A stretch of DNA of 64,000 nucleotides, from positions 2,304,001 to 2,368,000 of the forward strand of contig OY969564.1 of assembly GCA_963701095.1 (NCBI GenBank), read 5' to 3'. Origin of the DNA: an uncultured Methanoregulaceae archaeon (GTDB lineage: Archaea; Halobacteriota; Methanomicrobia; Methanomicrobiales; Methanospirillaceae). Positions 17,527 to 55,734 of this stretch are shown here, one piece after another. Each line of letters begins with the position of its first letter. Positions within the stretch are counted from its first letter, which is position 1. Made by a program: the position numbers and the translations under genes. The notes beneath the pieces were generated by a model, which had not been told where the DNA came from, ran no database searches, and saw only the letters and a program-made list of their open reading frames with translations.

Positions 17527-17564
17527 GACGCTCACCGGGGATTTCGCCCCTTGCAGCCTGGGCT
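17527..17564 (+). repeat. dispersed structured ~40-nt repeat, copy 1
   Basis: GACGCTCACCGGGGATTTCGCCCCTTGCAGCCTGGGCT. Confidence 0.75.
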
Positions 17565-17822
17565 GGACCCGGTCCGGATGTGTCGGCAGGATATACTCCA
17601 CCATATACTCAGGTTGTATGGCGGTTGTTCTGTCAAGGTATCGGCAGTTCTGAATATCCTCCCATCGAAGGAAAAAGGACAACCTGCAGACGAATGAACA
17701 GAACACCTTTTTCATTGTACTAACTTGGCGGTTCAATCAGACAACTTTGAGGATCTTGGGAATATATCCAACCATCCATGTAACAACCAAACGATACAAA
17801 ATGTAACGTATGGAGAACATCG

Positions 17823-18428
17823 ATGTCACAACTCGTTATAGAAACAGACACGGTAAAAAGAGGAGTGCTCTACTTCTTTGCTATCGTGGGCATCGCGATC
17901 ATTGGATGCTGGATCGGGATGGGTATCGTGGATCATTACATCAGTTTAGAGGCACAGCAGGCACCTGCTCCTGTGAGTGCACCTGTTACGGCTCCGGCAA
18001 CTGCTCCTGCTGCAGCTTCTGCTCTTCCTGTGGCACCAGTGGCACAACAGTACCCGTTTGTCATTGAATTTACGGTTCTGTCAACCACCGTAGCAGACGG
18101 GCATTATGTAGTGTTCACGACCGCCGGCCAGACCTTGTACATGCCTGACTTCTCTTCGTGGAACTCTTTGTACCCGCAGAACACGTATACCACGACCATT
18201 CTCGGGACTGAGGTAAATGGTGCATTGGATGCCAGTGCCGCAAACCTGATGTACCATTTCAATTATCCCCCGGTATCTTATCCCTTCTCTTACCCGGTGT
18301 ACTATCACTACTCGGGCTTGTACTACCGGTTCGATGGGTTGAAATCAAGCCAGATTCCGGCAACCACAGTTTCCGGTCAAAGAGTGATAGAGGGTATCCC
18401 CCCAAACTGGAACAGGGCCTATCCATAA
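17823..18428 (+). CDS. membrane-anchored hypothetical protein (one copy of a ~55-aa domain)
   Basis: N-terminal TM, Ala/Pro linker; paralog of 18537-19487. Confidence 0.75.
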   Translation: MSQLVIETDTVKRGVLYFFAIVGIAIIGCWIGMGIVDHYISLEAQQAPAPVSAPVTAPATAPAAASALPVAPVAQQYPFVIEFTVLSTTVADGHYVVFTTAGQTLYMPDFSSWNSLYPQNTYTTTILGTEVNGALDASAANLMYHFNYPPVSYPFSYPVYYHYSGLYYRFDGLKSSQIPATTVSGQRVIEGIPPNWNRAYP

Positions 18429-18536
18429 TCCTCTTTACAATCTGCCTTTAGTCCAGGTATACCCCTACAGGAGTTACCCGGTTTTTGCGGATCTGGATCG
18501 CCTCAAAGAACACCTTAAATTTCTCTCGGATACACT

Positions 18537-19487
18537 ATGTCCCAGCTTGTCATAGAAACGGATACCATCAAAAAAGGAGTGCTTTACTTCTTTGCTGTCG
18601 CGGGCATCGCAATTGTCGGATGCTGGATCGGGATGGGTATCATGAATTATTGCATCAGCGAGGCGGCACAATTAACCAGTGCTCCTGTCACTGCATCTGC
18701 CACGGCTTCCGCGCCAGCTGTGGCATCACCGGTACAACAGTTCCCTTTTGTCATTGAATTCACGGTTCTGTCAACCACCTTTGCCAACGGGCATTACCAG
18801 GTCGGGACAACCGCCGGAAACATTCTCTACGTGCCTGACTATGCGACGTGGAACTCTTTGTGGCTGCACGATTCCTATTCTGCAACGATAACAGGTGTCG
18901 AGCCAAACGGTGTTCTGGATGCCGGGACAGTCAGCCGTGTATCCTTATCTGGCACGTTTCCTTCATTACCTGAAACAATTCAGGCATCGCCCTATCCCAA
19001 AGCCCTTGCATTTACGGTCTCGTCGACAACCATAACAAACGGCAATTATGACGTAATGACTACCACCGGCCAGACCTTGCACCTGCCCGATTACGCGACA
19101 TGGAACGCGCTGCTCCCGCAGGACACTTATTCTGCAACAATTACCGGTTCTGAGGCTGACGGTTCGCTGGATGCCAGTACCATAACTCCTGCCCAGGTAA
19201 ATTATCCGGCGGGTACGTCCCGGGTAAGTACTGCGATGGCATCACCAACGACCTGGACACTCCAGGACTCACAGCACACCGGCACCATAACACTGTACCC
19301 GGGCGGTACCGGCCAGGCAACCATCGATAGTTACCCGACGGTATCGTTCACGTACACGCTCGCGGCCGATGGAACAGAGGGAACAGCATCGTACAACCTC
19401 TGGTCGGTCCCGTTCACGTACAATCCCGCCACTCATGTAATTACATCACCTCATTATCCGGGAGCAGAACTGGTTCCTGCCGGATAA
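18537..19487 (+). CDS. membrane-anchored hypothetical protein (two copies of the same domain)
   Basis: Near-identical N-terminus MSQLVIETDT.K.GVLYFFA; internal repeat FTV.STT..NG.Y.V.TT.G..L..PD...WN.L. Confidence 0.75.
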   Translation: MSQLVIETDTIKKGVLYFFAVAGIAIVGCWIGMGIMNYCISEAAQLTSAPVTASATASAPAVASPVQQFPFVIEFTVLSTTFANGHYQVGTTAGNILYVPDYATWNSLWLHDSYSATITGVEPNGVLDAGTVSRVSLSGTFPSLPETIQASPYPKALAFTVSSTTITNGNYDVMTTTGQTLHLPDYATWNALLPQDTYSATITGSEADGSLDASTITPAQVNYPAGTSRVSTAMASPTTWTLQDSQHTGTITLYPGGTGQATIDSYPTVSFTYTLAADGTEGTASYNLWSVPFTYNPATHVITSPHYPGAELVPAG

Positions 19488-23042: not shown

Positions 23043-24317
23043 ATGGCGAAACAATCGCAGAGTCAATCCGGGGGAAGAATCGCCGCATTTGTTAGCTCCT
23101 ACTCTAACAAGAGCACTGGGGGTGGGTATAAGAGTGCCATCGAGTCGTTTCTACGGTGCATTAATGGGCTTCCAAAGGCGAATACGGATGGCACAAGGGC
23201 AAAGTATGACTATGAACTACTTTTCGACGATTACCTTGCTGACAAGAAGCGGAACCATGATGAGGACTTCACGAAGTTTGCTGACTGCCTAAAATCGGAG
23301 TGTGCGAGTCACCAATCAGCCCGGCAGATTATGACAAATGCGAGGCGTATCCTCGAAGACAATGGTGCAAAATTCAAGGGCAAAACCGTCCGGGATTTAA
23401 AGCGGGAGATGAAAGGTGGGGCGGGTACTGTTGACAAGGTTATGACGGCGAAAGTAATCGATACTGTCCTGAAAGAACTCGATATAAAAGGACGAGCAAT
23501 TGTTCTTACCCTTGCCAGTTCCGGAGCCCGGTTAAACGAAATCCTTTCCCTGAAACTCTCCGATATAGACTTTGAAAGCAACCCGATTAAACTCACCCTG
23601 CGAAACACTAAAAACAAACAAACCCGGTTTACCTTCATTAGTTCAGAAGCAACACGAAGTATCCAGGCATGGCTTGAAAAACGTGAACACTATCTCGCAG
23701 GTGCATCCCGCCGAAACGCTGGACTTGTGCGGGCTGGTATCTGCGGGGAAAAAGACGCAAAATCGGATCTCCTCTTCCCTCTAACCGATACAGCCGTTAA
23801 TGCTCTTTGGGAAAATGCACTTAAGACAGCAGGTTTGTATTCGCAGGATGAACAGACCGGACGTAACCAATACCGGATACATTCTTTCAGAAAATTCTTC
23901 ATCAGCCAATTAAGCATGGCAGGTCAGAAAACACTTGCAGAACACCTGGCAGGACATATCGTTTATCTCGATGGTTCATACCGCCGGATTGATGAAGAGG
24001 CGGCTGGGAAGGCATACCTCGCCGTTCAGCACGTCATTACAATCGGTATTCCTCCAGAGTTCCGGGAGAGTGCAACCGAATTAACCGGCAAATTGAAGAT
24101 ACAGGGCGAAAGCATAGAGGGACTGCGGGCGATGAACGAGAAACTTGTCGCCCAAATGGTGAAGTTAGAAGACCAAAACACCACCCTCCAAGAGGATATT
24201 TCGATTATCAAGGAGGAGCAGGAACGGATGCGGCAGCATTACGCTATTATTGACCAATTGATGGCAAAGGACAGTGATGCGCAAGCTATATTCGGCAAAC
24301 TTCTGAAAAACCGTTAA
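23043..24317 (+). CDS. tyrosine recombinase/integrase with C-terminal coiled coil
   Basis: Complete catalytic set: SSGAR(R), NTK(K), HSFR(HxxR), LAGH(H), DGSY(Y). Confidence 0.92.
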   Translation: MAKQSQSQSGGRIAAFVSSYSNKSTGGGYKSAIESFLRCINGLPKANTDGTRAKYDYELLFDDYLADKKRNHDEDFTKFADCLKSECASHQSARQIMTNARRILEDNGAKFKGKTVRDLKREMKGGAGTVDKVMTAKVIDTVLKELDIKGRAIVLTLASSGARLNEILSLKLSDIDFESNPIKLTLRNTKNKQTRFTFISSEATRSIQAWLEKREHYLAGASRRNAGLVRAGICGEKDAKSDLLFPLTDTAVNALWENALKTAGLYSQDEQTGRNQYRIHSFRKFFISQLSMAGQKTLAEHLAGHIVYLDGSYRRIDEEAAGKAYLAVQHVITIGIPPEFRESATELTGKLKIQGESIEGLRAMNEKLVAQMVKLEDQNTTLQEDISIIKEEQERMRQHYAIIDQLMAKDSDAQAIFGKLLKNR

Positions 24318-40214: not shown

Positions 40215-40261
40215 GTTTGTATGATTATGATACACTACGGTCCCGGACGATTATGGAAAAA

Positions 40262-41368: not shown

Positions 41369-41559
41369 TTCTGACTTCAGTATAGTGTCTGGGAGAATAT
41401 TAGGTTTGGCAGAGGATTTACGAGGTTTTTCGACATTTCATTTGATGTGTGCTTCGTATCCTTATTGAAACCCGGGAATTTTACCCGTCGCTTATTCACG
41501 CTTTTATCCGGTTATTATAGAGGAAAAAGCAATAATTCCTGACAGATAAATCAGTTACT

Positions 41560-42714
41560 ATGGGATCATTCGATCTCGAAAATTTAAAGACTATCAATAC
41601 GATTATTGAGCGGGATAGCAAGGACACGACCTATAAGTTTGCCCTGTTACGCGGTGTTATCGAGATCTCGCAGGAATACCAGCACCTGGTAAAGGAATCC
41701 GGGGATAGTGTTTCGCTTCCTCTTGGTCTTCTCATTGAGAAATGGCTTTTGTACTATTATCCTGTCATTGAAAGCCAGGCATTTTTACCCCAACTGCATG
41801 GCGAGAAACCGGATTCTTTCCACAAGAGGATATCCTTCCGGCCGCTGTTCAGGGAAGTGACGGATTATTATGCAGGAAAGGGCGGCTTTTCGGCCTTCTA
41901 TAATGACTATGTGAATGGGTCCCTTGCTCCTGAAATTTCACCGGCTGTTTATGCATTGATTGCAAAAATCAGGACAACGATAACCACTATGCCTATGAAA
42001 CATCTCGGCCGCTCGCAGGGACACCGGGATTACTCTGTTTTTTCGTACAACAGGGATGCCCGCCGGATTCCCGCCGGGATGCCTGTTGGCCAGGAATCGG
42101 TTGTGCAATATTCCGGGACATTTTCTTTCCGGAAGGACCTTTTCCTGGTATTCCAGTACCTGGGCAGTTTCATCTCCGGTGATGATTCGCTGGTATACCA
42201 ATGGGCTGAGTTTACGCGTAAGGCAAGCGGGGGCACCCTTGCTGTTGCTGCGGTTATGGAAACATTGCGGACTATGCCGGAAACCGAAAGGGCGGTGAGC
42301 GAGGCCCGGCAGGTCTATACCCAGTTGTACCAGAACTATCACCATCTTGCATGCGTGTGGTCCGGGAAGCCGATCACGGATATGGGGCTGCTTCATGTGG
42401 ACCATATGATCCCGTTCTCGGTCTGGAAGAACAACAATCTCTGGAATTTGATGCCAGCATATGAGAGTATTAATGCAAAAAAACGGGATATGATTCCTTC
42501 ACCGGAATTTATTGAAAAAAGAGCGGATGCCATTGTCACGAACTGGAACAGTATGTACAAGGTCTATCCCAAACGGTTCTTGCGGGAGATTAATCTCGCC
42601 CTGGTCGGTTTGCCGGAGCAATCTTCTGGCTGGCAGGATGTAGCTTTGGAACGGCTCGGTGAAAAATGCGCATATCTGATTGATGTCCGGGGGTTTGATG
42701 CATGGCGCCTGTGA
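41560..42714 (+). CDS. HNH endonuclease domain protein
   Basis: N-terminal TYKFALL; CVWSG..HVDHMIPFS..NNLWNL....IN..K.D. Confidence 0.85.
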   Translation: MGSFDLENLKTINTIIERDSKDTTYKFALLRGVIEISQEYQHLVKESGDSVSLPLGLLIEKWLLYYYPVIESQAFLPQLHGEKPDSFHKRISFRPLFREVTDYYAGKGGFSAFYNDYVNGSLAPEISPAVYALIAKIRTTITTMPMKHLGRSQGHRDYSVFSYNRDARRIPAGMPVGQESVVQYSGTFSFRKDLFLVFQYLGSFISGDDSLVYQWAEFTRKASGGTLAVAAVMETLRTMPETERAVSEARQVYTQLYQNYHHLACVWSGKPITDMGLLHVDHMIPFSVWKNNNLWNLMPAYESINAKKRDMIPSPEFIEKRADAIVTNWNSMYKVYPKRFLREINLALVGLPEQSSGWQDVALERLGEKCAYLIDVRGFDAWRL

Positions 42715-43079
42715 AATGTCCTTTCTGTAATCCGCTGGCTGAAGATATTGTCGCACGTAACGATCTCTGCTATGTCCGCTGGGACATATTCCCGGTGAGT
42801 AAGGGGCATTTACTGATTATTCCGTTCCGGCATGTACCGGATTTCTTTTTATTAACTATTGAAGAGAAACAGGCGATGGTTGCTTTGGTTGATGTGTGCA
42901 AGGGTGTTATCGAGGAAAATTTCCAACCGGCTGGGTACAACATCGGGATAAATATTGGCGCAGCAGCCGGGCAGACCGTGATGCACTGCCATTGCCATAT
43001 GATCCCCCGGTATGCCGGGGATGTCCGGAATGCACGGGGTGGGATACGTGGAGTTGTGCCGGGGAAGAGGGAGTATTGA
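42702..43079 (+). CDS. HIT family nucleotide hydrolase (paralog of 39653-40030)
   Basis: HCHCH triad; near-identical to first copy. Confidence 0.93.
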   Translation: MAPVKCPFCNPLAEDIVARNDLCYVRWDIFPVSKGHLLIIPFRHVPDFFLLTIEEKQAMVALVDVCKGVIEENFQPAGYNIGINIGAAAGQTVMHCHCHMIPRYAGDVRNARGGIRGVVPGKREY

Positions 43080-43096
43080 GGGGGATTTTTTTAGAG

Positions 43097-43133
43097 GACG
43101 CTCATCGGGGCTCCGTCCCTTGCCGCGTGGGCT
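43097..43133 (+). repeat. dispersed structured repeat, copy 5
   Basis: GACGCTCATCGGGGCTCCGTCCCTTGCCGCGTGGGCT. Confidence 0.8.
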
Positions 43134-43191
43134 AATTCGGGAGAATAAAAATTAGATAATTATTAACGGCTCTAACTTGTGATATTAAATA

Positions 43192-43605
43192 ATGACTGAT
43201 GTCTTGACCAAAGAGCAGCGGACATTTAATATGTCAAAGATCCGGGGAAAAAATACCGGACCTGAGATCAAATTAAGAAAAATGCTCTGGTCACAGGGCA
43301 TCCGAGGCTATCGCATCCACTATATACTGCTAGGCAAACCCGATATCGTCTTCACAAAAAAGAAAATCGCAATTTTTGTTGATGGCTGCTTCTGGCACAA
43401 GTGTCCAGTCTGCTTTCAGGCTCCTGAAACCCGAAAAGAATTCTGGATGAAAAAGATCCAGTCAAATGTCGACCGCGATAAAAAAATTAATGATAAGTTA
43501 CAGATTGACGGATGGACCGTAATTAGAATATGGGAGCATGAAATCCGGAAAGAACCTGAAATAGTGATTAAAAAATTAATCAAGAAAATGTCGATATCAG
43601 CTTGA
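43192..43605 (+). CDS. vsr: very short patch repair endonuclease
   Basis: R..NMSKI.GKNT.PE, GKPD, FVDGCFWH, IWEHE. Confidence 0.95.
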   Translation: MTDVLTKEQRTFNMSKIRGKNTGPEIKLRKMLWSQGIRGYRIHYILLGKPDIVFTKKKIAIFVDGCFWHKCPVCFQAPETRKEFWMKKIQSNVDRDKKINDKLQIDGWTVIRIWEHEIRKEPEIVIKKLIKKMSISA

Positions 43606-43629
43606 CATGATTAATTATACCTTTAATCT

Positions 43630-45594
43630 TTAAATTTCCTCATCGCTATCATCGCCGCCGGACTTGCAAATATCGAGGTCTTCTCCTTGAGTTTTATCAT
43701 TTTCTAGGACAGTATCCTCTTCAAGAAGATATTTAATGTCCGGAATTATTGGATTTCCTGCTTTTCCAAAATATTCATCCCGTGTTTTAACAGATTCTTC
43801 ACTGATTAGCTCTTTTTTTAATGATTCCGGGATATCTATCCGGATTTTTTGGACCGATTTCCAGCATTCTTTCTTTTTACACCATTCGGAAATATTTCTT
43901 GATCCCGAAGGACCTTCGGTAATTGTGTTTCTGACTTCCGATGCCAGCTGACCAATAAATTTCTGAAGGGCAGGTGACAGATCCTGCTCCTTCCAGATTT
44001 TTTCAAGATCAATTCGTTTATTGGTCAATTTTGAAAGAATTGCAATAGTATAGGTCACATAATTTCCCTTGTATGGCCCGAAGTCCAGTTTCTTAATAAT
44101 TCCATCCGTTTTTTTGAACAAAATCGCTTTGGCTACAAGAAGCGAGAAGTAATACTTGTCGGGAATCTGAAGCGGACCTTTTTTTTGCTTTAATACAAAG
44201 GCACGGAAATTTTTCTGACTCCCAAGACTGACTATGTCAGGCATCTGATCCCACGAATTTTCATATTTTGCCAGATCTGTTTTTGTAAATCTCTGATGTG
44301 TCGGATTTTTGTCAGAAAAAATTGCTTTCAACTTCGGGGTCCTTTCTCTTTCTTTATCCACCTGATATTGCCCCCGTGCACGTTCATAGTACCAGTGCGT
44401 GTCCTGCTGACTCCCCTTTTTTGCAGGAGCCAAGACAGAACGGGACATTTTCTGGATTTCAATATGGAATTCTTCATTGGATACAAAATCCGATTCAGAG
44501 ATCCTATTCTGACTGTTAGCATATTGAGTGATTTTCGGGACGATAAATTTCATGTCGTTCTGATTTTTCAGAACTGTTAATTTGACCTGAACGAGAACTT
44601 CAGATATGTCACATTTTTCCTTAAAATAGGTATAGTGAATTGCTGCAGTAGTCTGACCGCCATTAACAATCTGAAAATCCCTGATCCAAGAAATGCCGGG
44701 AATACCGCAACTATTCTTTTCCAGTTTGACACACTCAGCAGTTGTCGAAATTCCGTTATTATATGCAAGGAACATGCAAGGTTCATTATGGATAGTTTCG
44801 CGGATTCCTTTGTTCACCTTTCCCTTCATTTGCAGGAATACCCGGATATTCCTTTCAAGAAGCTTTGGCCCGTATTTTCCATATAATTCGGCAACCATTT
44901 TTCCCGGCATTATTGCCAAGTATGATGTGTACCGGGGATTCTCGTTAGGCATTTCAAGACAGGTAAGAGGCGCCCCAAAATCCTTTATAAAATCTATCTC
45001 TATTGGTTCGGGCCGATTTCCTGAACTAGCAAGCCCGAACAATCGCTTTAAATCCCATATCTGATAAGAAATTCTGATTCCGTCTTCATTATCATCAGGA
45101 ATGGGCTCCGGTTTTACAATCCCATCTGTAATGATAAACAGATTTACACCAACGATATTTTCCCTGTTATTATAGATTGTATCGGCAAGATCAAATGCCG
45201 GATTTGATTCTTCAATTTTACCATATTTTTTATTAAGTGCGTTGGAAAGAAAGGTCCTGATCTTTTTGATATATGAATTGATATCAGATTTTGTTACCGG
45301 AATCCGGGAATATTCATTTGTGTAAACTGAAATGAAGAGATCAAAAAAAATCCCCTCTTTGTCACCATTGTTTTGAGTATTAAGGTTACTGTTATACGCA
45401 TTAATTTTGAAGCCTTTTCCTTCTAGGCGGCACAGAATATAATCTTCAATCACTGCAATATCTGTAAGATAATCAAGAAACTTTTCTGTGAACTGCTCTT
45501 CCATGAATGCTTCTGATTCGGGATCTTGGGCTGCATCAATAACATCCCGCTGAAAATTCTCGGCAAATTGTTCAAAATCACTCTCGTTGGTCAC
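43630..45594 (-). CDS. AIPR family protein
   Basis: LLERNIR.FL, F.AYNNGI, QIVNGGQT, ANSQN, YERARGQY. Confidence 0.92.
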   Translation of the reverse strand: MTNESDFEQFAENFQRDVIDAAQDPESEAFMEEQFTEKFLDYLTDIAVIEDYILCRLEGKGFKINAYNSNLNTQNNGDKEGIFFDLFISVYTNEYSRIPVTKSDINSYIKKIRTFLSNALNKKYGKIEESNPAFDLADTIYNNRENIVGVNLFIITDGIVKPEPIPDDNEDGIRISYQIWDLKRLFGLASSGNRPEPIEIDFIKDFGAPLTCLEMPNENPRYTSYLAIMPGKMVAELYGKYGPKLLERNIRVFLQMKGKVNKGIRETIHNEPCMFLAYNNGISTTAECVKLEKNSCGIPGISWIRDFQIVNGGQTTAAIHYTYFKEKCDISEVLVQVKLTVLKNQNDMKFIVPKITQYANSQNRISESDFVSNEEFHIEIQKMSRSVLAPAKKGSQQDTHWYYERARGQYQVDKERERTPKLKAIFSDKNPTHQRFTKTDLAKYENSWDQMPDIVSLGSQKNFRAFVLKQKKGPLQIPDKYYFSLLVAKAILFKKTDGIIKKLDFGPYKGNYVTYTIAILSKLTNKRIDLEKIWKEQDLSPALQKFIGQLASEVRNTITEGPSGSRNISEWCKKKECWKSVQKIRIDIPESLKKELISEESVKTRDEYFGKAGNPIIPDIKYLLEEDTVLENDKTQGEDLDICKSGGDDSDEEI

Positions 45595-46612
45595 ACAGAT
45601 CCCTCCCTAAACCTGACAAAAAATCTGCCTCGCTCACTCTAAATGGAATACACGAAGACAAATCAATGGTATAATGCACATCTCCCACTCCATTTCTCAA
45701 ATCATTTTCAATAATCCGGGGAAACTCATTTTTAACCAGAAAAATATGGATATCCCTGTCAACATAACCACGGGAATCATATTTTATCCTCTGTTTGTCG
45801 ATATATCCGGCTTTAAACAATTGCATCTCAAATTCGTGAACCGGACCTTTTTGTAAAGCAATCTGATTTCGGATTTGATCAATAATTGCAGGAAGTGTTT
45901 CCCCGGTTTCATTTACTTCATGAAGAGAAAGATGATAGATATAGAGTACATTTAATCCTGTATCATCCAGTTGCTGTTCACTGGCAATGGGAATTTTCTG
46001 GTGTTGTTTGGCAATATTTGTTTTCACTTCAACACCTATGCCGGATATCAGGAAATCCTGATTTCCTTTTGAAGGACCTTTCCATGCACGAATGGCTTTT
46101 TCAATTCCAATTCTCGGAAAAAGAATGTCCCGTAAAAACCTCATTTCCCCGTACAGACCCCGCTGATATTCGGGGCTTAAACCCTGCGATCCGAAAACAT
46201 CAAGAAAATGATGCCACATCAACAGACGTTCTATTATTCCTCGGACCATTTGCTTCTGATTCTTTTCCGAATTTGCTGTTTGATAAATATCTTCACAAAG
46301 CGTTGAAAAAATATCGGTAAAGGTCGGATCATTCAGAATAAAACCAACAATTAATGATCCTGGATTGTCATCGTGAAAATTCACGGGGGAAATATCAAAA
46401 CCCCGTAATTGAGGTAACGACCGGAATTCAGCGTAATTATGTTTTTCAACCCGAATGAGGAGCATTCTACGGTTTGCAGGTTTTTCATAACCAAGAAAAA
46501 TGTCATGAGATATATCGGGTGATATTCTTCGGATAATTATCCCATTTTCATCTTCGTTCGCGGATGACTCTTCCAGAATTTTCCAGATTGGATCAAATTT
46601 TTCAGCTGTCAA
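45578..46612 (-). CDS. PD-(D/E)xK motif protein (DUF4420-type)
   Basis: GLYGE, W.GP....QDF....VEVK, I.SE.QL. Confidence 0.85.
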   Translation of the reverse strand: MTAEKFDPIWKILEESSANEDENGIIIRRISPDISHDIFLGYEKPANRRMLLIRVEKHNYAEFRSLPQLRGFDISPVNFHDDNPGSLIVGFILNDPTFTDIFSTLCEDIYQTANSEKNQKQMVRGIIERLLMWHHFLDVFGSQGLSPEYQRGLYGEMRFLRDILFPRIGIEKAIRAWKGPSKGNQDFLISGIGVEVKTNIAKQHQKIPIASEQQLDDTGLNVLYIYHLSLHEVNETGETLPAIIDQIRNQIALQKGPVHEFEMQLFKAGYIDKQRIKYDSRGYVDRDIHIFLVKNEFPRIIENDLRNGVGDVHYTIDLSSCIPFRVSEADFLSGLGRDLCDQRE

Positions 46613-49346
46613 ATTCCTGCTCCCAATAAATGTTATTTACTTTATATGTGATTTTGACTGCTTTTTTGCTATCCGGGAAACTGAATGCAAGACCTATTAC
46701 AGGAATTTTTACATCAACTTTCAGCGGTTTTGGATCCAATGGATAAATTAGCAGAAGACCTCTTGTCGGGGGCCGTGCCGCTCGAATATAAGGTCCGCTT
46801 GGAATTGTTTTTTCATTAAATTCTTTATCGGTTCTATCTGGATCATTTTTCATCAACTCCAAGGCGAGTTTGTATTCCTCGTTTGTTAAATCAATAGATT
46901 CATGCCGTGGGCTGATGATTTGCGCCTTTTGCAGTATATAATTTTCATCTCTTTCGGTCAGACCTATAGTGTGACAATTGAAGTTGTATACATTTGCAGC
47001 TTTTTGTCGGCTAATCAGTGCAATAGTCCAAGATTTCAGTTCTCCAACTTCATTTTGCTTCTGAATATACTGGCGTATTAAATCCGGCCGTATTGTTTTC
47101 GAAAAAAACTGATACTCGTCAAGAATCTGAAAAATAATTTCTGAATTTATACCACTCCAGATTGGCGTATCACCCTTCATTGTTGAAGTGGTTCCCATTT
47201 TTTTAACAATATTTTCGATGCAGTTCAGATTATTCTCCAGAGTCATTGGGTCTTTGCTGAAAGATGTGGTCTGGGGTTTTGAATTCGAAAATGTACACTG
47301 CATTTCAGTACCGGATCTCATTTTGTTCACCGCAGTGATTTTCAGACCTTCCGGATGAGTTCTCACTCGGAGCCCATAATCCGCGGGGGTCGCTTTCAGG
47401 GATGCCATATAATCGAATTCATTTCGTAAGTCTTCCGAGGCCATGTTGATAAATGAATACCATTCAACAAGTTCATGTGAGGTATAGAGCCGGCATAAAT
47501 CAATATATCCCGGCCTGAATCCGAACCATCGTCCCATCTGCATCAAGGTATCGTACATTCGTGAAGCACGGAGATAGTAACTAACTGTGAGCCCTTCGAG
47601 TGTGAGACCGCGGGATAATTTATCTCCCCCGATTGCAATGATACTGATACCGTCCGGATTATCCTTGTAATCAAGGGCATCTTTAGCCGTTCCGTTAATT
47701 ATTTTTATTCGGATTTTTGCAGCAGCTGCATAAAGATTTGATTTTACTGAAGCCCAGTCAACATTCGTGAGAAGTGGATCATCTATGCGCCGGGTGATAT
47801 CCGCTGTTGTTGGTACATAGTCTTCCCGCCAGAGGTTTTCCATCTCCCGGTAAATGCTTGTTTCTGAGTCCGGGTTCTCATATTCTAACCGGCGTCTTTG
47901 GGCTGTAAGTTCAACACTAATGAGAGCTGCAAGTTTGTCCTGTACGGATATGTATCGTGTAACATGCACAAGCATAGAGTTATGACATCTTGTCTCGCCA
48001 CGAGATTTTCTAGCAGCACATGAAATAATGAACGCATTAATCGCTCTCTTTAGAGATTCTGGTAATTCTTCTGGATTGAAAAATTTTGTGTGTTTATCCG
48101 GTATTAATGTCTCATAATCTCGGATAATACGGATAATGGGTAACCCCGCTTCTTTTTCGGAATCCGGGTCATCGTCCTGTGTAAAGCCAAAAATTTGTGA
48201 AGGCCCCACATAATTAGGAGGAGGAGGAAGGTTGATTATAAAATCTCTTGGGAAAAGATCCTCACCATGCGTTGTTGTCTCTCCATCAGGATAAATAAAA
48301 ATATTTGCGAACGGCGTTGCCGTATATCCAACATAAGCACTTTTTTCGAAATGATGCAATAGCTCACGGATTTTTCCGTTGATTGCGCTGACATCATAAT
48401 CGGGGAGAGGACGATCGTTTTCATCACGTGGGATAGGATTCGTATTCACTGACGCATTATCTGCTTCATCATCAATAACAAGCAAAGGGATATTCCGGAC
48501 AACAATTTTATCTGTGTTCGGATCTCTCTGACCTTTGACACTAATCGCCCATTTGATAAGATTTGCTAAAACCGATTTCTGTTTTTTTACAACAAGGATT
48601 ACTGGATCAGTACCCCCCGGCAATACTCCGACTTGTTGAGCCACTCTTTTATTAAAATCTCCATTATCTTCACTACTGGTGAGAGAACTGACTGCAAATA
48701 ATTCCTCGCCGGGCAGTTTTCCGACCCCTGTTCGCAGATTTTCCGTATCGAATTTTCTCCCACGTCTTGTATCAAATCCCAAAAAACCTTCGTCAAGACG
48801 AAGCTGGGTTTGGCTTCTGAGGCTTTTATGCATCCCTGCAAGGACAATAACAAGTTTATATCCTGCATCCGCAGCTTTGCAAATCAGACCCGTGTAGTTG
48901 GAAGTTTTTCCGGACTGAACCTGCCCGACTACCATCCCCCTACGATCCCATTCACCTTCACGGAGTGGATACTCGAGGAGTTCAAGAACCTTGTCAGTGA
49001 GTTCATCGATACGGATAATTGATGATTCATGAATCCCCTTTTCTTCCATCAGATAGCGCTGGTATCTATTCCAGAATTTCCATTTTATCTGACTTTTTCT
49101 GTCAGGGAGCCAAGCAATATGGGTTTTCTGATTATCTTCAAGAATCGTTGCCCGGCCTTTCCAAATTTCACAGCGGGATTCAATGTCCCGGATCAGATAT
49201 TCGATATCAAACGGCTCAAAATTTTTTTCCTCCTTGATCATTGAAAGGACACGTTCACATTTTTGCCGGATAATCTCTACTGTCGGTGTTTGCTCACTCT
49301 TGAGCATTATGAGAACGTGCTGTCTTGCTTGATCAATTGAAGACAT
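46602..49346 (-). CDS. Z1 domain-containing helicase-like protein
   Basis: GQVQSGKT, IDDEAD, YTATPFAN, LSRGLTLEGL, DTLMQMGRWFG. Confidence 0.92.
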   Translation of the reverse strand: MSSIDQARQHVLIMLKSEQTPTVEIIRQKCERVLSMIKEEKNFEPFDIEYLIRDIESRCEIWKGRATILEDNQKTHIAWLPDRKSQIKWKFWNRYQRYLMEEKGIHESSIIRIDELTDKVLELLEYPLREGEWDRRGMVVGQVQSGKTSNYTGLICKAADAGYKLVIVLAGMHKSLRSQTQLRLDEGFLGFDTRRGRKFDTENLRTGVGKLPGEELFAVSSLTSSEDNGDFNKRVAQQVGVLPGGTDPVILVVKKQKSVLANLIKWAISVKGQRDPNTDKIVVRNIPLLVIDDEADNASVNTNPIPRDENDRPLPDYDVSAINGKIRELLHHFEKSAYVGYTATPFANIFIYPDGETTTHGEDLFPRDFIINLPPPPNYVGPSQIFGFTQDDDPDSEKEAGLPIIRIIRDYETLIPDKHTKFFNPEELPESLKRAINAFIISCAARKSRGETRCHNSMLVHVTRYISVQDKLAALISVELTAQRRRLEYENPDSETSIYREMENLWREDYVPTTADITRRIDDPLLTNVDWASVKSNLYAAAAKIRIKIINGTAKDALDYKDNPDGISIIAIGGDKLSRGLTLEGLTVSYYLRASRMYDTLMQMGRWFGFRPGYIDLCRLYTSHELVEWYSFINMASEDLRNEFDYMASLKATPADYGLRVRTHPEGLKITAVNKMRSGTEMQCTFSNSKPQTTSFSKDPMTLENNLNCIENIVKKMGTTSTMKGDTPIWSGINSEIIFQILDEYQFFSKTIRPDLIRQYIQKQNEVGELKSWTIALISRQKAANVYNFNCHTIGLTERDENYILQKAQIISPRHESIDLTNEEYKLALELMKNDPDRTDKEFNEKTIPSGPYIRAARPPTRGLLLIYPLDPKPLKVDVKIPVIGLAFSFPDSKKAVKITYKVNNIYWEQEFDS

Positions 49347-50874
49347 TAAGTGGCCTCACTTTCTTTAAACTGCATGAATTCTGTCACATATTTGGGATAA
49401 TCGGAAAACGGTTCCATATGAATCAGCCGCAATTTTGCATTTTCCGGGGATATCCCCGTGTTAATCATCGAACTCCAGATCTCTTCCAAAACACTTTTCA
49501 ATTCATCAGAGGGAGCACCTTCAAATGGTCGCTGGATTTTATCCGGATTATTCGAGCCATTCATGATTATCAGAGGGACCGGGACTGTTTCCTCGATAAT
49601 CCGAAGCATTGCCTGGATTTTTTTTCTTGACACTCCGGAATTTTGGAGGATATCAGAAACTAATGGATGATCCCGGTTAATGGAATAATGATAGTTTCCA
49701 TGTAGGACTAATGTAGACCAAGGGAATGTGATAGAAGATTCACTGGTTCGTTCTGCAACTTTTCCTCGAAAACGGAACACAGATATCGCTTTATCAATCG
49801 TAAGACGGGAGATGCGCTGAAAATCATCCCTGATAAGATTCGGAGGTCTGGCAACGGACTTCTTGACATCAATTTTCCAGTCGCCATCAAGCGAATTGGG
49901 AATATCAACCATTATACGGGCTAATTTGGTAAATTGTTCTTTTCTGATTGGCTGTCCCTTCATGGATTCCAAACCCAGCCAGTCCCCCGGAACGATCAGA
50001 CGTTCATTGCGATAAATATAGAAACCCTGACGTTCGTTCCATCCCCCGGACCCCCGGCTAGTTCATAAGTCTCGTCATCAAGTTTTGAACGATGAGGTAA
50101 AACAAAGGGTTGGATAGTGATTTTTTTACTATTATAGAGAATATTCTCATGGGGCAGATGTTGCGTTGACGGGTGATTCGTCAGAAACGGATCCCAAGGC
50201 TTTATTTCCCTGCCGTTAAGAATGATTTTCAAACTACGGGGTTTGACAAGAAATCGATGAAAAACCATTTCGAGGTGCTTTTTCATGATGTCAAGCTGCG
50301 CTAAAAAATGATCCTTGTGTTTTTTATTCGTAGAATCTGTCCCTTTCGTTATTCTGTCCATCTTTTCCCATAGGACAATTGTTCCACATTTCATATCATC
50401 AAGAACAGAAAAAACCGGGGGAATATTTTCTTTATTAGGTTTAACGAGACGCCACTCCCCACATAAATTTACGTAATCCAGATCCCAGAAACGGATAACC
50501 GTTTCATTCCCTTCGGATTTTGATCCCACAGTAAGTTTCCGACATTGTGAAAACGATGCTGTTTTCAATCCAAGACCAAATCTCCCGAGGTCTTTGGCAT
50601 CTCTTTCTTGGAGGGGATTTTTGCTCCCGGGTCGCATCGCATTTTTCAGAGCATTTTCGGTCATTCCATGACCATCATCTCTGATAGAAATCGTGGAATT
50701 CTCCCCATCCCATGTACAATCAATCCAGATATTCTGTGCCTCGGCATAAATGCTGTTATCAATTACATCTGCAACGGAAGTCTCAAGATGATACCCATAT
50801 GCCCGAAGTGTTTCAATCATCGCACCGGCGTCAGGGGATACAATATCATAAAAATCGGAAAGGGTTGTATCCAT
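49346..50874 (-). CDS. MORC/MutL-like GHKL ATPase (apparent 1-nt frameshift ~50045)
   Basis: DVIDNS, DDGHGM, DLGRFGLGLKTASFS; restoring one G gives GGWNERQGFY into the 49346 ORF (W.IDVKKS). Confidence 0.9.
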
Positions 50875-50951
50875 TCAGATCATCACTATCGAGAGAGATT
50901 TTTTGTATATTGATAATTATAGTATGATCTGTATTATCTATTGTGTTTTAA

Positions 50952-52223
50952 TTATTCGGATGAGTTTAGCATTTTATATATTTTTTGGGCAATCCCCTCT
51001 GCCATCAATGGTGGAACAGCATTCCCTATCTGAACATATTTTGCAGATCGTGGTCCTTCAAAGAGATAATCATCAGGGAAAGACTGGATTCGTGCCGCTT
51101 CCCTTACCGTTAGTGATCGTGCTTGGGTTATATCGGGATGAATAAAATAATGACCATCTTTCGCTAGATGAGCAAGAATAGCATGAGAAACAGAATTTTT
51201 GTCTACCACCTTATATCGATCAAGAAATGCACCACGGTTTCGATGGGTTTTGAGTTCTTCCGGAAGATCATTATAATTTAATCTTTGACCGGATTTATCC
51301 CATTTTTTTATTACGATGCGATAAATTTCCCGATCTCTCTCGTTATGCCACCTTGCCTGATGATGGCGGACTTTACCGATTTCAGTTCTCATTTCTTTAT
51401 CGATTAGATATTTTGATTGGCGGCCTGTTCTGTAAGATTGTATACCATCATTGCCCTCACCGGCTTGGAGTCGGGGCAGATCAATGAGAAGATCTTTCAC
51501 TGTACCGGTATGTCTTTTACATGGAAATTCCGGATAACTGAAATCATCCTCTTTCCTCCAGCCAATGAAAATTATTCGCTGTCTGTCCTGCATCACTTCA
51601 AAATTTGATGCATTGAGAACATGAGCAGTTTTATCCAGATGATATCCGAGTCGGGAACATCCATTTATTACATCATTGAAAATAGTTCCTTTTTTCGCGC
51701 TGATGAGGCCGGGAACATTTTCAAAAATGAAAAGCCGTGGCTGAAACTCCTTTAAAAACTGATGATAATGCCGGTAAAGGTAATTTCTTGGATCATTCTC
51801 TGATTTCTTCCCGTTTTTTCCCCGACCAGCAAGAGAATAGGATTGACAGGGAGGCCCCCCGATAATGACATCAACATCAGATCGGTGATAACAGTTTTTC
51901 AGTGTCGATTTAAGATCTGCAATAATGGAATTATTTGCAGAATCTGATAACATTCTATTTATGACCCGTGGGGATTCGAACCCCTCCTCTTCTGACATTT
52001 GAATAAATTGCTCACGGTCAATTTCTCCCCGATAATATTGATTATAAAGAGCCGTTTTTCCGGCATCTTTGAGATTGTGATACAATATCCGAGTTTCCAG
52101 TGTATCGGCAGCATTTTTATCCATCTCGATGTGGCCTAGGAAATCAAAAGAATGCCGAACAAATCCTTCAGTTAGTCCCCCGCCTCCGGAGAACATATCG
52201 AGAACAAGAAACTTTGAAGGCAT
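50952..52223 (-). CDS. dcm: C5 DNA cytosine methyltransferase
   Basis: DMFSGGGG, GGPPCQ, FENV, Q.R.R, REAARIQSFP, QIGNAVPP. Confidence 0.95.
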   Translation of the reverse strand: MPSKFLVLDMFSGGGGLTEGFVRHSFDFLGHIEMDKNAADTLETRILYHNLKDAGKTALYNQYYRGEIDREQFIQMSEEEGFESPRVINRMLSDSANNSIIADLKSTLKNCYHRSDVDVIIGGPPCQSYSLAGRGKNGKKSENDPRNYLYRHYHQFLKEFQPRLFIFENVPGLISAKKGTIFNDVINGCSRLGYHLDKTAHVLNASNFEVMQDRQRIIFIGWRKEDDFSYPEFPCKRHTGTVKDLLIDLPRLQAGEGNDGIQSYRTGRQSKYLIDKEMRTEIGKVRHHQARWHNERDREIYRIVIKKWDKSGQRLNYNDLPEELKTHRNRGAFLDRYKVVDKNSVSHAILAHLAKDGHYFIHPDITQARSLTVREAARIQSFPDDYLFEGPRSAKYVQIGNAVPPLMAEGIAQKIYKMLNSSE

Positions 52224-52328
52224 TGTCTAGTTGTTTTTGCCAGGATTGATATTAATTGTGACTGTTTAAATTAATGGAAAAATCACTAACTGTGTTGTTA
52301 ATGTTCAGTGAAAGAGGATAATATTTGG

Positions 52329-52665
52329 TCATCCCAGCCACCCTATCAGGCACGCCATATATTTCCCGGACTAAGTTAGGAAAACAAAAACATTCCTTCT
52401 GCTTTCTCCCGGATGATCAGTTTGTTTTGTTCCAGTTTCGACAAGATGGTCTTGTCGAGTTTCATTAGCTGCCTGCTCTGGACGCCGCGTTTTTTCTCTC
52501 ACTCAACTTAAGAGAATAACGTCTCGAACCCTTGCACATGCTGGTCCCGGAGAACTTCAAAGATATCTTTAGTTCTCATTGGTTTATCCTTCTTGTATAG
52601 GAACATGAGGATATACTTCCCATTTTCACCGGGCTGCATAAATGCAAAGTTAACTACCTCATTCA
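52329..52665 (-). pseudogene. winged-helix regulator C-terminal remnant with internal stops
   Basis: ILMFLYKK.KPM..KDIFEVL..*..SRQLMKLDKTILSKLE..LI.REK..LT*SG. Confidence 0.5.
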
Positions 52666-52800
52666 CATCAGGAGTCTGGCAGATACTGCACCCGTGAAGG
52701 TTGACCTCTTCTCGGTCCGGCAAAATCCTTTGCCATAACACAGTAAAGGTTAACGTCGTGCGACATCGCAGCCATCGTCATTCCCCCGCCTTCTGTCCTA

Positions 52801-54837
52801 TCAATGCGCTTGTCCTGGGAGGATGAAGGTTAAGGCATTCCTGTCTTCGGAAAAATCATCGTCCCATTCAGAATGTCGCCAGTAGTCATCGAGATCCCGG
52901 GTCTTCAGGTACGAAGAGTAGATCTTGTACGCAAGGTTAGCGATCATGTCTGGTCCCTCGCTGTTCGTCACCAGCCCGCTGCCCGGGTGACTGAATGTGA
53001 ATTTGTCGCCGGTCCACCGCTTCTGCAGCGCTTTCATTTCCGCAAGCAGCCGTTCATCGGCGGGGTACTTGATCTGCCCTTCGCGCATACGCTCCTCAAG
53101 GTTTTCGTATATCTGCATCTTGTGTTCCGGCGTGTACGGGGTTTCCTTCAGCCCGAAATCAAGGGCAAAGCGCTGCCTGACTATGCCGGTCGCATGCTCA
53201 TCATGAACTAGGGTTTGGACGCGGTATCCTTCGCACAGGAGATTGATATCGTACAGTGCCTTTTTCCAGTTGAGCTGGTTATCCTCCGGCAGCCAGTACC
53301 GGACCAGGTCAATAATGACCGAATCGCCTTCCATGTGACCGATGCAGAACCAAAGGACATCTCTGCGCCGGCTCGTACCAAGGGCTCCCTGATACTTGTC
53401 TGAGTACGTAAACGAAAACCACGATTCCTGCTGGCTGTTGCGGTCGACGAGTCCCGGGGAAAACATTGCATTCCGATCAGCGTTGTTTACCCCGAACGTC
53501 AGCATTAACGCATCAGCTCTATCAGGGCTGGACAAGCCCCGGCGTTTCATATCGTCTTTACTCTCGATCAGGATCTGTCCCCGGCTGTTGACCTTGTACC
53601 GGATGCCGGCCAGCTGGGTAACCAGAGCCTCATCATCAGGGATAGTGATATCACCAGACTCAAACCGGGACCGGAGAGCAAACCACCATTCAGCCCGGGC
53701 GTTCCCATACCGTTCCTTATTCTGGGCCGCAGAGCCGCTCTGCATCTCCACGACTGAAATCTTCTGCTCGTTAAGCCGGTCGAAGACACCGGCACCGACA
53801 CCAACACTATCGATCTTTGCAATGGTCGACCCCGTCTCACGCATGGCAAAAATAATCTCCCCGGCAGTGGTCATGGTATCGGACATCGGCAGCACCTTCC
53901 AGATCCGGGCCGCAGATCCCTGCCGGAGCATGATAACAGTCTCATCTCCACCGAACCGGGCAACATCAACACCGAGCTCCACCGGCTCCGTTGCATCAAG
54001 ATTCCGGTCAACCGCAGCCTCAATCCAGTGCAGAGGGATCAGGGTATTATCGCCAGAAGACGGGAACTGTGCAAGCACCTTGGAATGATACAGTGGTGAA
54101 TCGGTACCCCACTGCTTCACGCGGTCAGATACCCAGCCCGGCGAAACCAGGTACGGGGCTGGAAGACTGCCGGTAACCTTAGTCCCCCACGTACCGCTAA
54201 TGATATCCTGTTCCGTAATACCAAACCTGGTAAAGTTCGGGGTATCGTACGCCGATATCGTGATCTTCGATGCATGGGAGTTAGATGAAAACTCTTTGTA
54301 AAACCGGCCCGATGGGTTCAGCGGGTTACCTATCATCAGGAGACGAGATTCATCCGAGGTGAGCACACCATCAATTGCATCGAAAATATCTTCCGAGACA
54401 CCGCTGGACTCATCAGCGACTACGAGGATAAACGGTGCATGGAATCCCTGGAACTTATCACCGGCATGTTCCGGAGAGGTGAATCCCATCGCAAACCAGT
54501 CGTTACTGATCTTAAGTTCCTGCATCAGGCATTCCCCGTCTAACGGCACTTTTGCCCGCTGGAAACCAGCCCGGATCTCTTTCCAGAGGATCCCGGCAAC
54601 TTGGCGGTCGGTCGGGGCGGTCGTGATGACGATCGATTGAGGATGGTTGTACAAAAACCACAGCGAAGCATCGGCGGCAACGAAGGATTTCCCTGCAGCA
54701 TGACAACTTTTTACCGCAGTCACTTTATGATCCCGGATGCTTTCGAGGATTTGCACCTGCTTTTCCCATGGAGTATGGCCGAGCACTTCGCGTACCCAGA
54801 GCCCGGGGTCGAGAAGGTACCGGATTGCGCTTGTCAA
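52801..54837 (-). CDS. terminase large subunit with an extra C-terminal degenerate nuclease-like domain
   Basis: Walker A SCHAAGKS, Walker B VVADES, IGNP, LGVDVA..GGD, SPDRADA; GGAGGTG SD then TTG at 54837. Confidence 0.88.
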   Translation of the reverse strand: MTSAIRYLLDPGLWVREVLGHTPWEKQVQILESIRDHKVTAVKSCHAAGKSFVAADASLWFLYNHPQSIVITTAPTDRQVAGILWKEIRAGFQRAKVPLDGECLMQELKISNDWFAMGFTSPEHAGDKFQGFHAPFILVVADESSGVSEDIFDAIDGVLTSDESRLLMIGNPLNPSGRFYKEFSSNSHASKITISAYDTPNFTRFGITEQDIISGTWGTKVTGSLPAPYLVSPGWVSDRVKQWGTDSPLYHSKVLAQFPSSGDNTLIPLHWIEAAVDRNLDATEPVELGVDVARFGGDETVIMLRQGSAARIWKVLPMSDTMTTAGEIIFAMRETGSTIAKIDSVGVGAGVFDRLNEQKISVVEMQSGSAAQNKERYGNARAEWWFALRSRFESGDITIPDDEALVTQLAGIRYKVNSRGQILIESKDDMKRRGLSSPDRADALMLTFGVNNADRNAMFSPGLVDRNSQQESWFSFTYSDKYQGALGTSRRRDVLWFCIGHMEGDSVIIDLVRYWLPEDNQLNWKKALYDINLLCEGYRVQTLVHDEHATGIVRQRFALDFGLKETPYTPEHKMQIYENLEERMREGQIKYPADERLLAEMKALQKRWTGDKFTFSHPGSGLVTNSEGPDMIANLAYKIYSSYLKTRDLDDYWRHSEWDDDFSEDRNALTFILPGQAH

Positions 54838-54874
54838 AGCATGCACCTCCGGAACACCAAAAAATGCCCCGACA

Positions 54875-55369
54875 TCATATCCCCGCCTCCTCAAGCGCGG
54901 CCAAAAGTTCAGCATGGATTTCGGGATGTTTCGATAAAATACGCATGAGAACCGGCCACTCCGGGGACGTTGTAATAGTCTGGACGCCGACATTTACTTG
55001 GACGGCAGTCTGGTTTCTGGCATTCAGCTCCCCGGTAACCTGTCCCAGCAGCTCTACACAACCCCGGGCTTCCCGGATCGCACTTATTGCTGTCCGCAGG
55101 TCGCCGGCTGTCTCTGCCTTGTTCATGTACGAGATCGATTTGCTGAGGAGACCTTTTGTCCACTTTAGGAGATCCTCTCCATTGGCGATCTGTCGTGCCT
55201 CTTCAGCTTTTGCGACAGATGCCGAAATGTGACCAGCTTTTTGATGATCGTAGAGGCTGCTTTTCGTGGCACCGAATTGTTTAGCGATAGTCCGGAGGGA
55301 TGTACCTCTGATAATTTCCTGATCAATTTCTGTGCGACTTTTGTGTGCACAAATACAACATTTTTTCAT
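54875..55369 (-). CDS. putative terminase small subunit (CxxCxH + HTH)
   Basis: KCCICAH..EID..SLRTIAKQFG..SL..H, helical middle region, directly upstream of terL. Confidence 0.65.
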   Translation of the reverse strand: MKKCCICAHKSRTEIDQEIIRGTSLRTIAKQFGATKSSLYDHQKAGHISASVAKAEEARQIANGEDLLKWTKGLLSKSISYMNKAETAGDLRTAISAIREARGCVELLGQVTGELNARNQTAVQVNVGVQTITTSPEWPVLMRILSKHPEIHAELLAALEEAGI

Positions 55370-55694
55370 TAAATCAACTCTTTTACAAAACACCCGGATT
55401 GCAAGTTGTAATCATACGAATACTATCAGGATCATTTTCCCGCGCATTGCCCGTCGAATGGAAAGTTCAGGTCGAAATACAAGAGCCTGAACTTCAAGGA
55501 AAAAGATGAGAAAAGCGCCTTTGTAATCGACAATGTCAAGCTGAAAACCGGGCATCGAATACGTTGGCGTTCCAGAAAATTATAAAGGTAAAATGAAATT
55601 CGGCAAAAACAAAAAAAAAGAGAAGAATCGATAAAAGAGGAATATATCAGGTTTTTTGCGGATTGCTCAAAATGCTCAACTATATTTCAGGGTA

Positions 55695-55734
55695 AGCCCA
55701 CGCGGCACAGGGCAGCGAGCCCCGTTTGAGCGTC
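55695..55734 (-). repeat. dispersed structured repeat, copy 6 (inverted)
   Basis: Reverse complement GACGCTCAAACGGGGCTCGCTGCCCTGTGCCGCGTGGGCT. Confidence 0.75.

Follow-up and report, generated by a model that had tools for sequence, protein, structure and literature searches.

A lineage-specific family of short extragenic hairpin elements at the module boundaries of defence islands in Methanoregula and its close kin

What is the short structured repeat that recurs between the genes of an accessory island in an uncultured Methanoregulaceae archaeon, and what keeps it at the seams between gene modules? The island lies in a stretch of 64,000 nucleotides (the window; contig OY969564.1, positions 2,304,001 to 2,368,000 of assembly GCA_963701095.1, genome G000 below), for which an initial annotation had proposed six copies of an unannotated folded repeat at accessory-gene boundaries, likened to repetitive extragenic palindromic (REP) sequences, MITEs (small transposable elements with inverted repeats), integron attC sites or a small RNA motif. 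The repeat is a member of a lineage-specific family of ∼48-nt extragenic hairpin elements found in Methanoregula and close kin. As to its role, we tentatively favour, at somewhat short of an even chance, an element comparable to REPs and bacterial interspersed mosaic elements (BIMEs) that serves as a portable joint for the homology-driven exchange of modules.

Consensus-half, profile and covariance searches recovered the six copies as five strong ones and a decayed one. At the left boundary of the accessory island lies copy 1 (17520-17568, plus strand; cmsearch 56.8 bits, E 2.8e-14), 4 nt past the stop of a truncated gp19-like tail-tube open reading frame (ORF; 17010-17516). Copy 2 (38500-38550, plus; 65.7 bits) follows a T-run and what is left of a HIT gene at 38485, its final ∼20 nt, copy 3 (40042-40091, plus; 67.9 bits) sits between HIT gene 1 and a convergent SoFic gene, and copies 4 (43090-43137, plus; 63.7 bits) and 5 (55691-55741, minus; 61.5 bits) form the left and right arms of an inverted pair around a Vsr+MZA block, copy 5 lying ∼300 nt upstream of a minus-strand operon. 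The decayed copy (33347-33390, plus; cmsearch E 0.058, nhmmer E 0.042) follows a YhfC gene (32518-33291). A covariance model built from the five strong copies and run over the window with filters off returned all five at E <= 2.8e-14 and nothing better than E 1 in positions 1-17 kb; the initial annotation had seen no copy in the core 12 kb. Independently of the model, the consensus 3' half occurs with up to three mismatches at 17546, 38528, 40069 and 43115 on the plus strand and at 55695 on the minus strand, i.e. five matches versus 0.01 expected, a count reached in none of 100 shuffles. The 5' half is found at 17527, 40049 and 43097 with zero or one mismatch and at 33354 with three; the copies at 38507 and 55695 escape this pattern, with one extra base in each, and the matches at 29702 and 30303 (two of six) look like chance. 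On the whole genome of 2,625,686 bp, nhmmer retrieved the five strong copies at E <= 1.1e-9, the partial copy at E 0.042 and no additional copy below E 0.8; outside the window, the genome holds just one degenerate relative and no strong copy. The repeat is thus confined in its own genome to 17.5-55.7 kb of the window, a 38-kb accessory island, rather than being genome-wide or evenly spread behind core genes. All copies are intergenic by our ORF calls, as annotated, and within the genome they are only ∼81% alike.

Across 85 matches (71 distinct), the GC-rich motif reads GACGCTCA-N-C-GGGGC-loop-GCCCC-TYG-CCGCGTGGGCT, with a minority 3' variant ACAGCCAGCGTGGGCT. The five-pair inner stem GGGGC/GCCCC is nearly invariant and encloses a loop of 3-6 nt that varies in length and sequence, so that this part of the annotated structure holds across the 71 distinct copies; the same loop lengths rule against a coding reading. 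The outer stem first proposed, GCTCA/TGGGC, is tenable (95.3% paired, one double change), but a four-pair ACGC/GCGT register fits slightly better, with 98.9% of cells paired and two compensatory changes among the distinct copies; 3 of 500 shuffles do equally well. Covariation support is thin because nearly all positions of the motif are invariant. An almost invariant stem with a variable loop points to a fold formed in one strand and is at odds with a dimer site on duplex DNA, whose spacing would be fixed. Also discarded was a third outer helix (GGGR ... YCCC), since cognate arms paired no better than mismatched ones (-8.55 versus -8.54 kcal/mol; 2746 of 5000 permutations were as low); the flanks are complementary in general, without cognate-specific complementarity.

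Of 60 congeneric genomes sampled, 40 contain the motif by the covariance model (1-11 copies each, mostly clustered); so do two of eight genomes of a second family of the order, and none of 32 genomes from four other families. A search with an exact pattern, run on a single genome for each prokaryotic species, gave 91 stretches. Among the 80 of these 91 that were listed, four carry bacterial labels and the rest are labelled Methanoregula, Methanoregulaceae, Methanolinea or unclassified Methanomicrobiales. Two of the four bacterial-labelled records are chance matches without the 5' half. The other two, which hold the whole motif (L076 and L084, labelled as Deltaproteobacteria and Fibrobacteraceae metagenome-assembled genomes, MAGs; L084 on a 257-kb contig), are probably mis-binned, or else result from transfer. 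At least 126 stretches of metagenome contigs contain the motif, and viral contigs gave no exact match, on which ground a viral origin was rejected. That the motif is undescribed agrees with the Rfam check: no Rfam 15 family matches it at gathering scores or at a suggestive E-value in scans of three stretches. In the same vein, the literature searched, with most subscription journals outside its coverage, contained no account of an element of this kind for Methanoregula or for any other methanogen. A CRISPR-like repeat was also dismissed, the resident 32-nt repeat sharing only the words GCGTGG/ACGTGG with the motif, whose copies are spaced by 1.5-16 kb. The CRISPR array in question (G000:C1:∼147500-151420) comprises ∼60 units with a 32-nt repeat ending in GTGGATTGAAAT and is presumably type I-C-like.

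The position of the motif relative to genes is strongly polarised. Around the 67 copies with enough flank, and counting ORFs of at least 80 aa, co-oriented ORFs end upstream of the motif within 40 nt in 19 cases and within 80 nt in 25, versus 2 and 4 divergent ORFs that start there. Downstream, convergent ORFs end within these distances of 13 and 18 copies, and co-oriented ORFs start within them of 4 and 16. These counts indicate that the motif is attached to the 3' side of its upstream neighbour. Twelve contigs carry the motif in both orientations; on 11 of them, this window included, the arrangement is convergent (+ ... + - ... -), with G008:C17 as the exception. Many of these loci are homologous and hence not independent trials; eight other multi-copy contigs have a uniform orientation. 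A Ter-like polar fork trap was considered because the arrays converge, and was rejected: the origin lies at ∼1.75 Mb and the terminus at ∼0.5 Mb (GC skew, Cdc6), and the island at 2.32-2.36 Mb.

Attachment to gene ends is also what would be expected of an RNA-level 3'-end element, i.e. a hairpin transcribed with the upstream gene that insulates or stabilises its transcript, with selection keeping one hairpin per moved module. We regard such a role as possible, though on balance doubtful. Besides the polarity itself (25 versus 4 of 67 copies), where only one side of a stem pair has changed, the usual result on the given strand is a G-U pair (12 cells versus 7 unpaired), and in 62 of 70 copies the RNA fold of this strand is better than that of its complement. 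The strand bias follows, however, at least partly from the G-rich, C-poor composition of the 60 nt upstream of the motif (G 34-36%, C 11-17%), where G exceeds C in the 40 nt next to the motif in 60 of 67 copies irrespective of the upstream gene. This tract is rich in GGAGG/GGGGAT-like words (e.g. window 43030-43089 and 38440-38499). Moreover, strict conservation of unpaired flanks is unusual for a terminator, and the 18 copies that face a convergent gene end would be read antisense. An intrinsic terminator finds no match in the motif either, as no T-run (U-tract in RNA) follows the hairpin; T5 occurs within 30 nt upstream in 11 of 67 copies versus 6 of 67 for a control window, and within 60 nt downstream in 15 versus 8. 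The T-run announced as a preface to several copies is indeed present at 38500, 40042 and 43090, and weaker at 55741. A T-run is a termination signal in archaea. A T5-T7 run before the HIT-type copies would therefore make most transcripts stop short of the motif, which speaks against a routine role of these copies in 3' untranslated regions.

Transcript libraries bear on the same explanation. Four metatranscriptome runs from four studies contain parts of the island as assembled contigs, which bridge the copy at 40042 in two runs (X1 and X3), and the 34-nt core is also seen in RNA-library contigs with the flanks of other copies. These contigs give neither strand nor ends and may include DNA carry-over, and the motif probably entered the libraries through read-through. 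Contig stops at 38548-38553 and within 40049-40078 were examined as RNA ends and are explained by k-mers common to the copies, while a contig-free stretch at 42476-43139 proves nothing. The deepest coverage of the island by such contigs (depth 27-59) is at 38553-39303, with adapter sequence directly at 39298-39303 in two runs; a start on the minus strand at that point would agree with the TATA-like, AT-rich tract at ∼39327-39358. This segment holds overlapping ORFs of 124 aa (minus) and 145 aa (plus), neither of which matches any family.

What does the motif adjoin? The 979 ORFs clustered around 208 distinct motif contexts show it next to defence genes rather than recombinases. Among the named clusters, the largest by number of contexts are HNH_4 (20), HIT (18), NERD-UvrD helicase (10), RNase III-like (9) and HNH_2 (9), followed by Vsr (8), PLD (8), ResIII-PLD-DUF3427 (8), Dcm (6), DUF3800 (6) and ArdC (6); toxin-antitoxin parts are present as well, and none of the 40 largest clusters contains a recombinase or transposase. 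The description of the copies as accessory-gene boundaries is accurate, since they lie 3' of genes and flank the defence modules HNH-HIT, SoFic and Vsr+MZA, either as direct or as convergent inverted repeats. Apart from protein genes, a tRNA-Gln(ttg) lies ∼115-200 nt from the motif at 8 of 58 loci (L010, L014, L020, L028, L082, L088, L090, L186), with no recombinase beside it at two loci checked, and a tRNA-Thr lies ∼170 nt upstream of the motif at two Methanolinea loci (L068, L097).

Comparison between genomes shows that synteny breaks at the copies. Genome G050 matches the window at 96.8% identity over 38478-43133 and is unrelated upstream of 38478. In G041, the Vsr+MZA block is shared (43094-52224, 78-88%) and likewise bracketed by an inverted motif pair, with the inverted copy at the same end of the MZA block as copy 5 and a different gene upstream; the motif-Vsr adjacency recurs in G057 in a third upstream context. 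In G053, direct repeats of 135 nt (92% identical), each consisting of the tail of a shikimate-kinase-like gene, the motif and 24 nt more, surround a 741-bp insert. Several MAG contigs start or stop at a motif copy. At base level, one breakpoint between G000 and G050 maps ∼50 nt inside the HIT 3' end and the other at the motif's 5' part or inside it; this difference in position fits homologous rather than fixed-site exchange, a hint from two cases.

The intact HIT genes at 39653-40030 and 42702-43079 are 88% identical over 477 nt including the repeat. The reported HIT triplication amounts to these two genes; in place of a third there is a 68-nt stub (38485-38551 by blastn against the HIT regions), in which no more than the final ∼20 nt of a HIT gene remain, ahead of copy 2. 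A promoter-like module, CCGG.TTATTATAGAG.AAAAAG, precedes both HNH copies (at ∼41509-41531 for the intact HNH_4), it also follows the decayed repeat copy at 33397-33428, there reading CCGGATTTTCAG..TATAGAGAAAAA, and in relatives it stands directly 3' of many motif copies. From this placement, the HNH-HIT operon is often packaged as motif, promoter, genes, T-run and motif.

Could the copies be passive relics without a role of their own, mere 3' flanking sequence that moved with a HIT gene when its segment was duplicated? Copies 3 and 4 do lie within the 477-nt duplication, copy 2 retains the HIT tail, and HIT is the second commonest named neighbour (18 of 208 contexts). Such an origin would explain only copies 2-4. 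The core is also seen behind many genes that are not related (gp19-like, shikimate-kinase-like, UvrD, RNase III-like, HNH_2 and ResIII-PLD), its conservation extends over species-level genomes in which other intergenic DNA diverges, 29 of the 40 motif-bearing genomes of the genus have no HNH match at E <= 1e-10, and the motif occurs in a 0.7-kb non-coding element and in genome G091 without any HIT gene. As a general explanation, passive carriage is therefore largely refuted and very unlikely. HNH-HIT as a driver of the repeat was likewise set aside: HNH is found in only 12 of 60 genomes of the genus (11 of the 12 with the motif) and also in 11 motif-less genomes of other families.

A further setting of the motif is a long non-coding element. 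In 28 of 208 contexts, the motif lies in the middle of a conserved element of ∼0.6-0.7 kb, whose differences by codon position are flat (1436/1282/1627, versus 1784/1271/4116 for HIT, HNH likewise not being flat), which marks it as non-coding. Examples are L046:5404-6118 and L047:7406-8030 and 16008-16704. Within 31 kb of a single contig, the element occurs three times as direct copies (78-82% alike) on either side of accessory segments, and a degenerate copy is present in the genome studied here, outside the window (G000:C1:2618560-2619060, or L051:6560-7060). The element includes a second hairpin, GUGCGCC-GAA-GGUGCAC in some sequences and GCACGGC-GAA-GCUGUGC in others (L075:1377-1632 and relatives; alignment A4, columns 45-61), a switch in 3 of 15 sequences that comprises three compensatory pairs and leaves one G-U invariant. 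This hairpin is a candidate module of structured RNA or of single-stranded DNA. The motif lies downstream of this hairpin, directly upstream of it or ∼400 nt upstream, and this varying order identifies the 0.7-kb element as a mosaic of modules.

A different arrangement is seen in G091, from another family of the order, in which at least 44 dispersed copies of a variant, GACGCTCTCGGGGGC-loop-GCCCCCGCCGCGTGGGC, are spread over many contigs. They often form convergent inverted pairs 55-170 nt apart that flank ordinary genes and are accompanied by a second hairpin, GGGAGGGGGC/GCCCCCTCCC (e.g. L159:831-1102, L151:4551-5454, L164:1016-1213). These copies look like REP/BIME elements at work in an archaeon.

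REPs, BIMEs and REP doublets (REPINs) are bacterial short GC-rich extragenic palindromes that occur with REP-associated tyrosine transposases (RAYTs). The present family shares with them the short, imperfect GC-rich palindrome with conserved flanks, its restriction to a lineage, its extragenic location at gene 3' ends and between convergent genes, its tie to variable regions, and its occurrence as single copies, as inverted pairs and as part of mosaics that include further short modules (G091 and the 0.7-kb element). It differs in being archaeal, in having 1-11 copies per Methanoregula genome clustered in one or few islands, and in the lack of a RAYT partner: PF01797 (Y1/RAYT) has no match in G000, G050, G032 or G091, the last being 91% complete, and its two matches in G001 are both on contigs without a motif match. 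The comparison to REPs applies to the palindrome itself, its conserved flanks and its extragenic place behind genes, and fails for the transposase, which was not found in G000 or G091. Dispersal over the chromosome, often as inverted doublets, is seen in G091 but not in G000, with its 5+1 copies in 38 kb. A MITE finds no support in the motif, with neither terminal inverted repeats nor target-site duplications seen.

These enzyme searches bear most directly on a true site-specific recombination or transposition site, which would work in the form of folded single-stranded DNA (akin to attC, or as a REP served by an enzyme encoded elsewhere in the genome) and define mobile cassettes. The conserved stem, free loop and conserved asymmetric flanks are as in attC sites or ends recognised by HUH enzymes; cassette-like arrays in one orientation are found with 1-5 kb spacing (six copies in G050:C47, three in G035:C43); the spread over the G091 genome needs a means of moving; the order of modules in the 0.7-kb mosaic differs between genomes; and the better-folding strand is on the lagging-strand template for five of six copies by the GC skew of this genome. 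The candidate enzymes nonetheless fail to appear. Relatives of both HUH nucleases and integron-type tyrosine recombinases had been suspected in the window, and neither suspicion held. None of the 80 window ORFs scanned matches a HUH family, HIT proteins carrying a histidine triad and not being HUH nucleases, and the window's integrase, a tyrosine recombinase (23043-24317, plus; Pfam Phage_integrase 6.2e-14) that lies inside the first segment and adjoins no repeat copy, reaches 32.6 bits with the integron integrase model TIGR02249 against a cut-off of 265, the best score in the whole genome being 47.9. A particular integrase was also tried as a partner and rejected, with homologues in 36 of 60 genus genomes and most other families that are not adjacent to the motif. 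An integrase beside one long element is unrelated to that of the window and belongs to a family widespread in the order without consistent adjacency. To these come the absence of recombinases from the neighbour clusters, the two breakpoints at differing positions, the sub-families of the motif, which keep their left and right halves together, and the missing target-site duplications. A search with both flanks for filled and empty pairs gave no clean one, only segment replacements within the 0.7-kb mosaic element. Taken together, we consider a dedicated site of this kind unlikely.

The likeness to attC deserves a closer look. The R''/R' boxes of attC sites read RYYYAAC ... GTTRRRY, and the sites are 57-141 nt long. 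The motif is shorter (∼48 nt), highly conserved in sequence and devoid of such a box pair: its 3' end is an invariant GCGTGGGCT, and its 5' GCTCA[A/T/C]C fits RYYYAAC only in the AAC sub-type. Besides the missing GTTRRRY box and integron integrase, the arrays converge rather than being co-oriented beside intI, no attI or Pc is found, and breakpoints are not fixed, all of which speaks against the attC-like assignment. Similarities remain with attC sites and gene cassettes, including the archaeal integrons of Ghaly et al., in a site that is defined by its hairpin structure, varies at its centre and immediately follows cargo ORFs on their 3' side, and in the arrays of small modules, many of them defence or toxin-antitoxin genes, with one motif per module.

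Two other systems invite comparison. The dRS3 repeats and Neisseria intergenic mosaic elements (NIMEs), together with the 'minimal mobile elements', are short repeats flanking exchangeable gene blocks and are thought to promote block replacement by homologous recombination with imported DNA. Unlike the archaeal family, they are bacterial, have a far higher copy number, and dRS3 is also a phage attachment site; we know of no natural DNA uptake in Methanoregula. In the tandem accretion of integrative elements, as in cis-mobilizable elements (CIMEs) of ICESt-type elements and in tycheposons, islands likewise consist of successive modules set apart by att-like repeats, most modules being without an integrase of their own and some contexts near tRNA genes. 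Their att repeats are identical cores cut by a cognate tyrosine recombinase, whereas the centre of the present motif is its most variable part and no cognate integrase is linked to it.

On these grounds, the reading that we put forward is the REP/BIME-like joint. The conserved core and the adjoining common gene tail would provide a short homology with a hairpin-prone centre, and modules could be gained, lost, duplicated or inverted via homologous or short-homology recombination between copies, whether in the same island or on incoming DNA, each module travelling with its own repeat copy. We infer both that recombination occurs at the repeat and that the repeat promotes it. Several observations weigh against this proposal. 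No recombination event was caught in the act, and the metatranscriptome contigs placed on the island contain neither excision circles nor recombinant joints. Just two breakpoints were mapped, and the related genomes are not independent, so that contig and copy counts overstate the support. The core is conserved for its own sake, and homology that starts at the motif is no proof of a crossover there. The ∼81% likeness of copies within the genome makes a poor substrate for homologous recombination, which moreover cannot explain the first arrival of the core behind unrelated genes. Finally, fold energies are unremarkable, with RNA z-scores from +0.5 to -1.4 and DNA z-scores mostly insignificant.

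The remaining contents of the island are as follows. Before its start lie a thermosome gene and two gp19-like tail-tube ORFs, a truncated pair (16572-17516). The two ORFs stand alone, the second matching only the middle of the Pfam model, and look like the remnant of a contractile system cut at the island edge. PPK2, YhfC and ABC transporter genes are among the contents, and a HIT relic is detected by tblastn and blastn at 34446-34514. The segment 39435-40030 (plus) combines an internally deleted HNH gene (tblastn), with residues 1-62 fused to ∼330-383 and residues ∼63-329 gone, and the intact HIT gene 1 (39653-40030; Pfam HIT 4.9e-23). The SoFic-type Fic defence gene follows at 40262-41368 (minus; PADLOC SoFic 1.8e-114; Pfam Fic_N and Fic). 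The HNH_4 nuclease (41560-42714, 384 aa) and HIT gene 2 (42702-43079, 125 aa) form an overlapping two-gene cassette on the plus strand (Pfam), with HNH homologues in 24 of 101 Methanomicrobiales genomes searched, and may represent an undescribed two-gene defence cassette. Next come Vsr (43192-43605, plus; PADLOC and Pfam) and, on the minus strand at 43630-52223 (PADLOC and Pfam), MzaE/AIPR, MzaD, MzaC/Z1, a split MzaB and a Dcm methylase. MzaB is divided into ORFs of 292 and 208 aa (49346-50874) that match the N- and C-terminal parts of the model. Three unassigned ORFs (52508-55393, minus) lie after the MZA block. Elsewhere in the window, the Rfam eL15-Euryarchaeota ribosomal protein leader is recognised at 4646-4697 with 34.1 bits versus a gathering score of 33.7.

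A bolder version of the cassette idea would be a Methanoregulaceae integron-like system that dispenses with the integron integrase, the folded 48-nt hairpin and its G-rich leader being the candidate recognition site of a host or element enzyme that cuts and joins single-stranded DNA. We hold this to be rather improbable. If true, whole defence systems such as MZA, SoFic and HNH-HIT could be excised, inverted and inserted between convergent sites, and the proliferation of the motif in G091 would reflect unrestrained activity of this machinery.

To conclude, defence islands are known to be mosaic, and the swapping of modules in archaea is largely unexplained. A seam motif that recurs across a methanogen genus offers a practical marker for module boundaries and for new defence systems, and a concrete substrate for recombination and binding assays. 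Besides, it opens a way to test for the existence and action in archaea of REP/BIME-like elements, a concept hitherto confined to bacteria.

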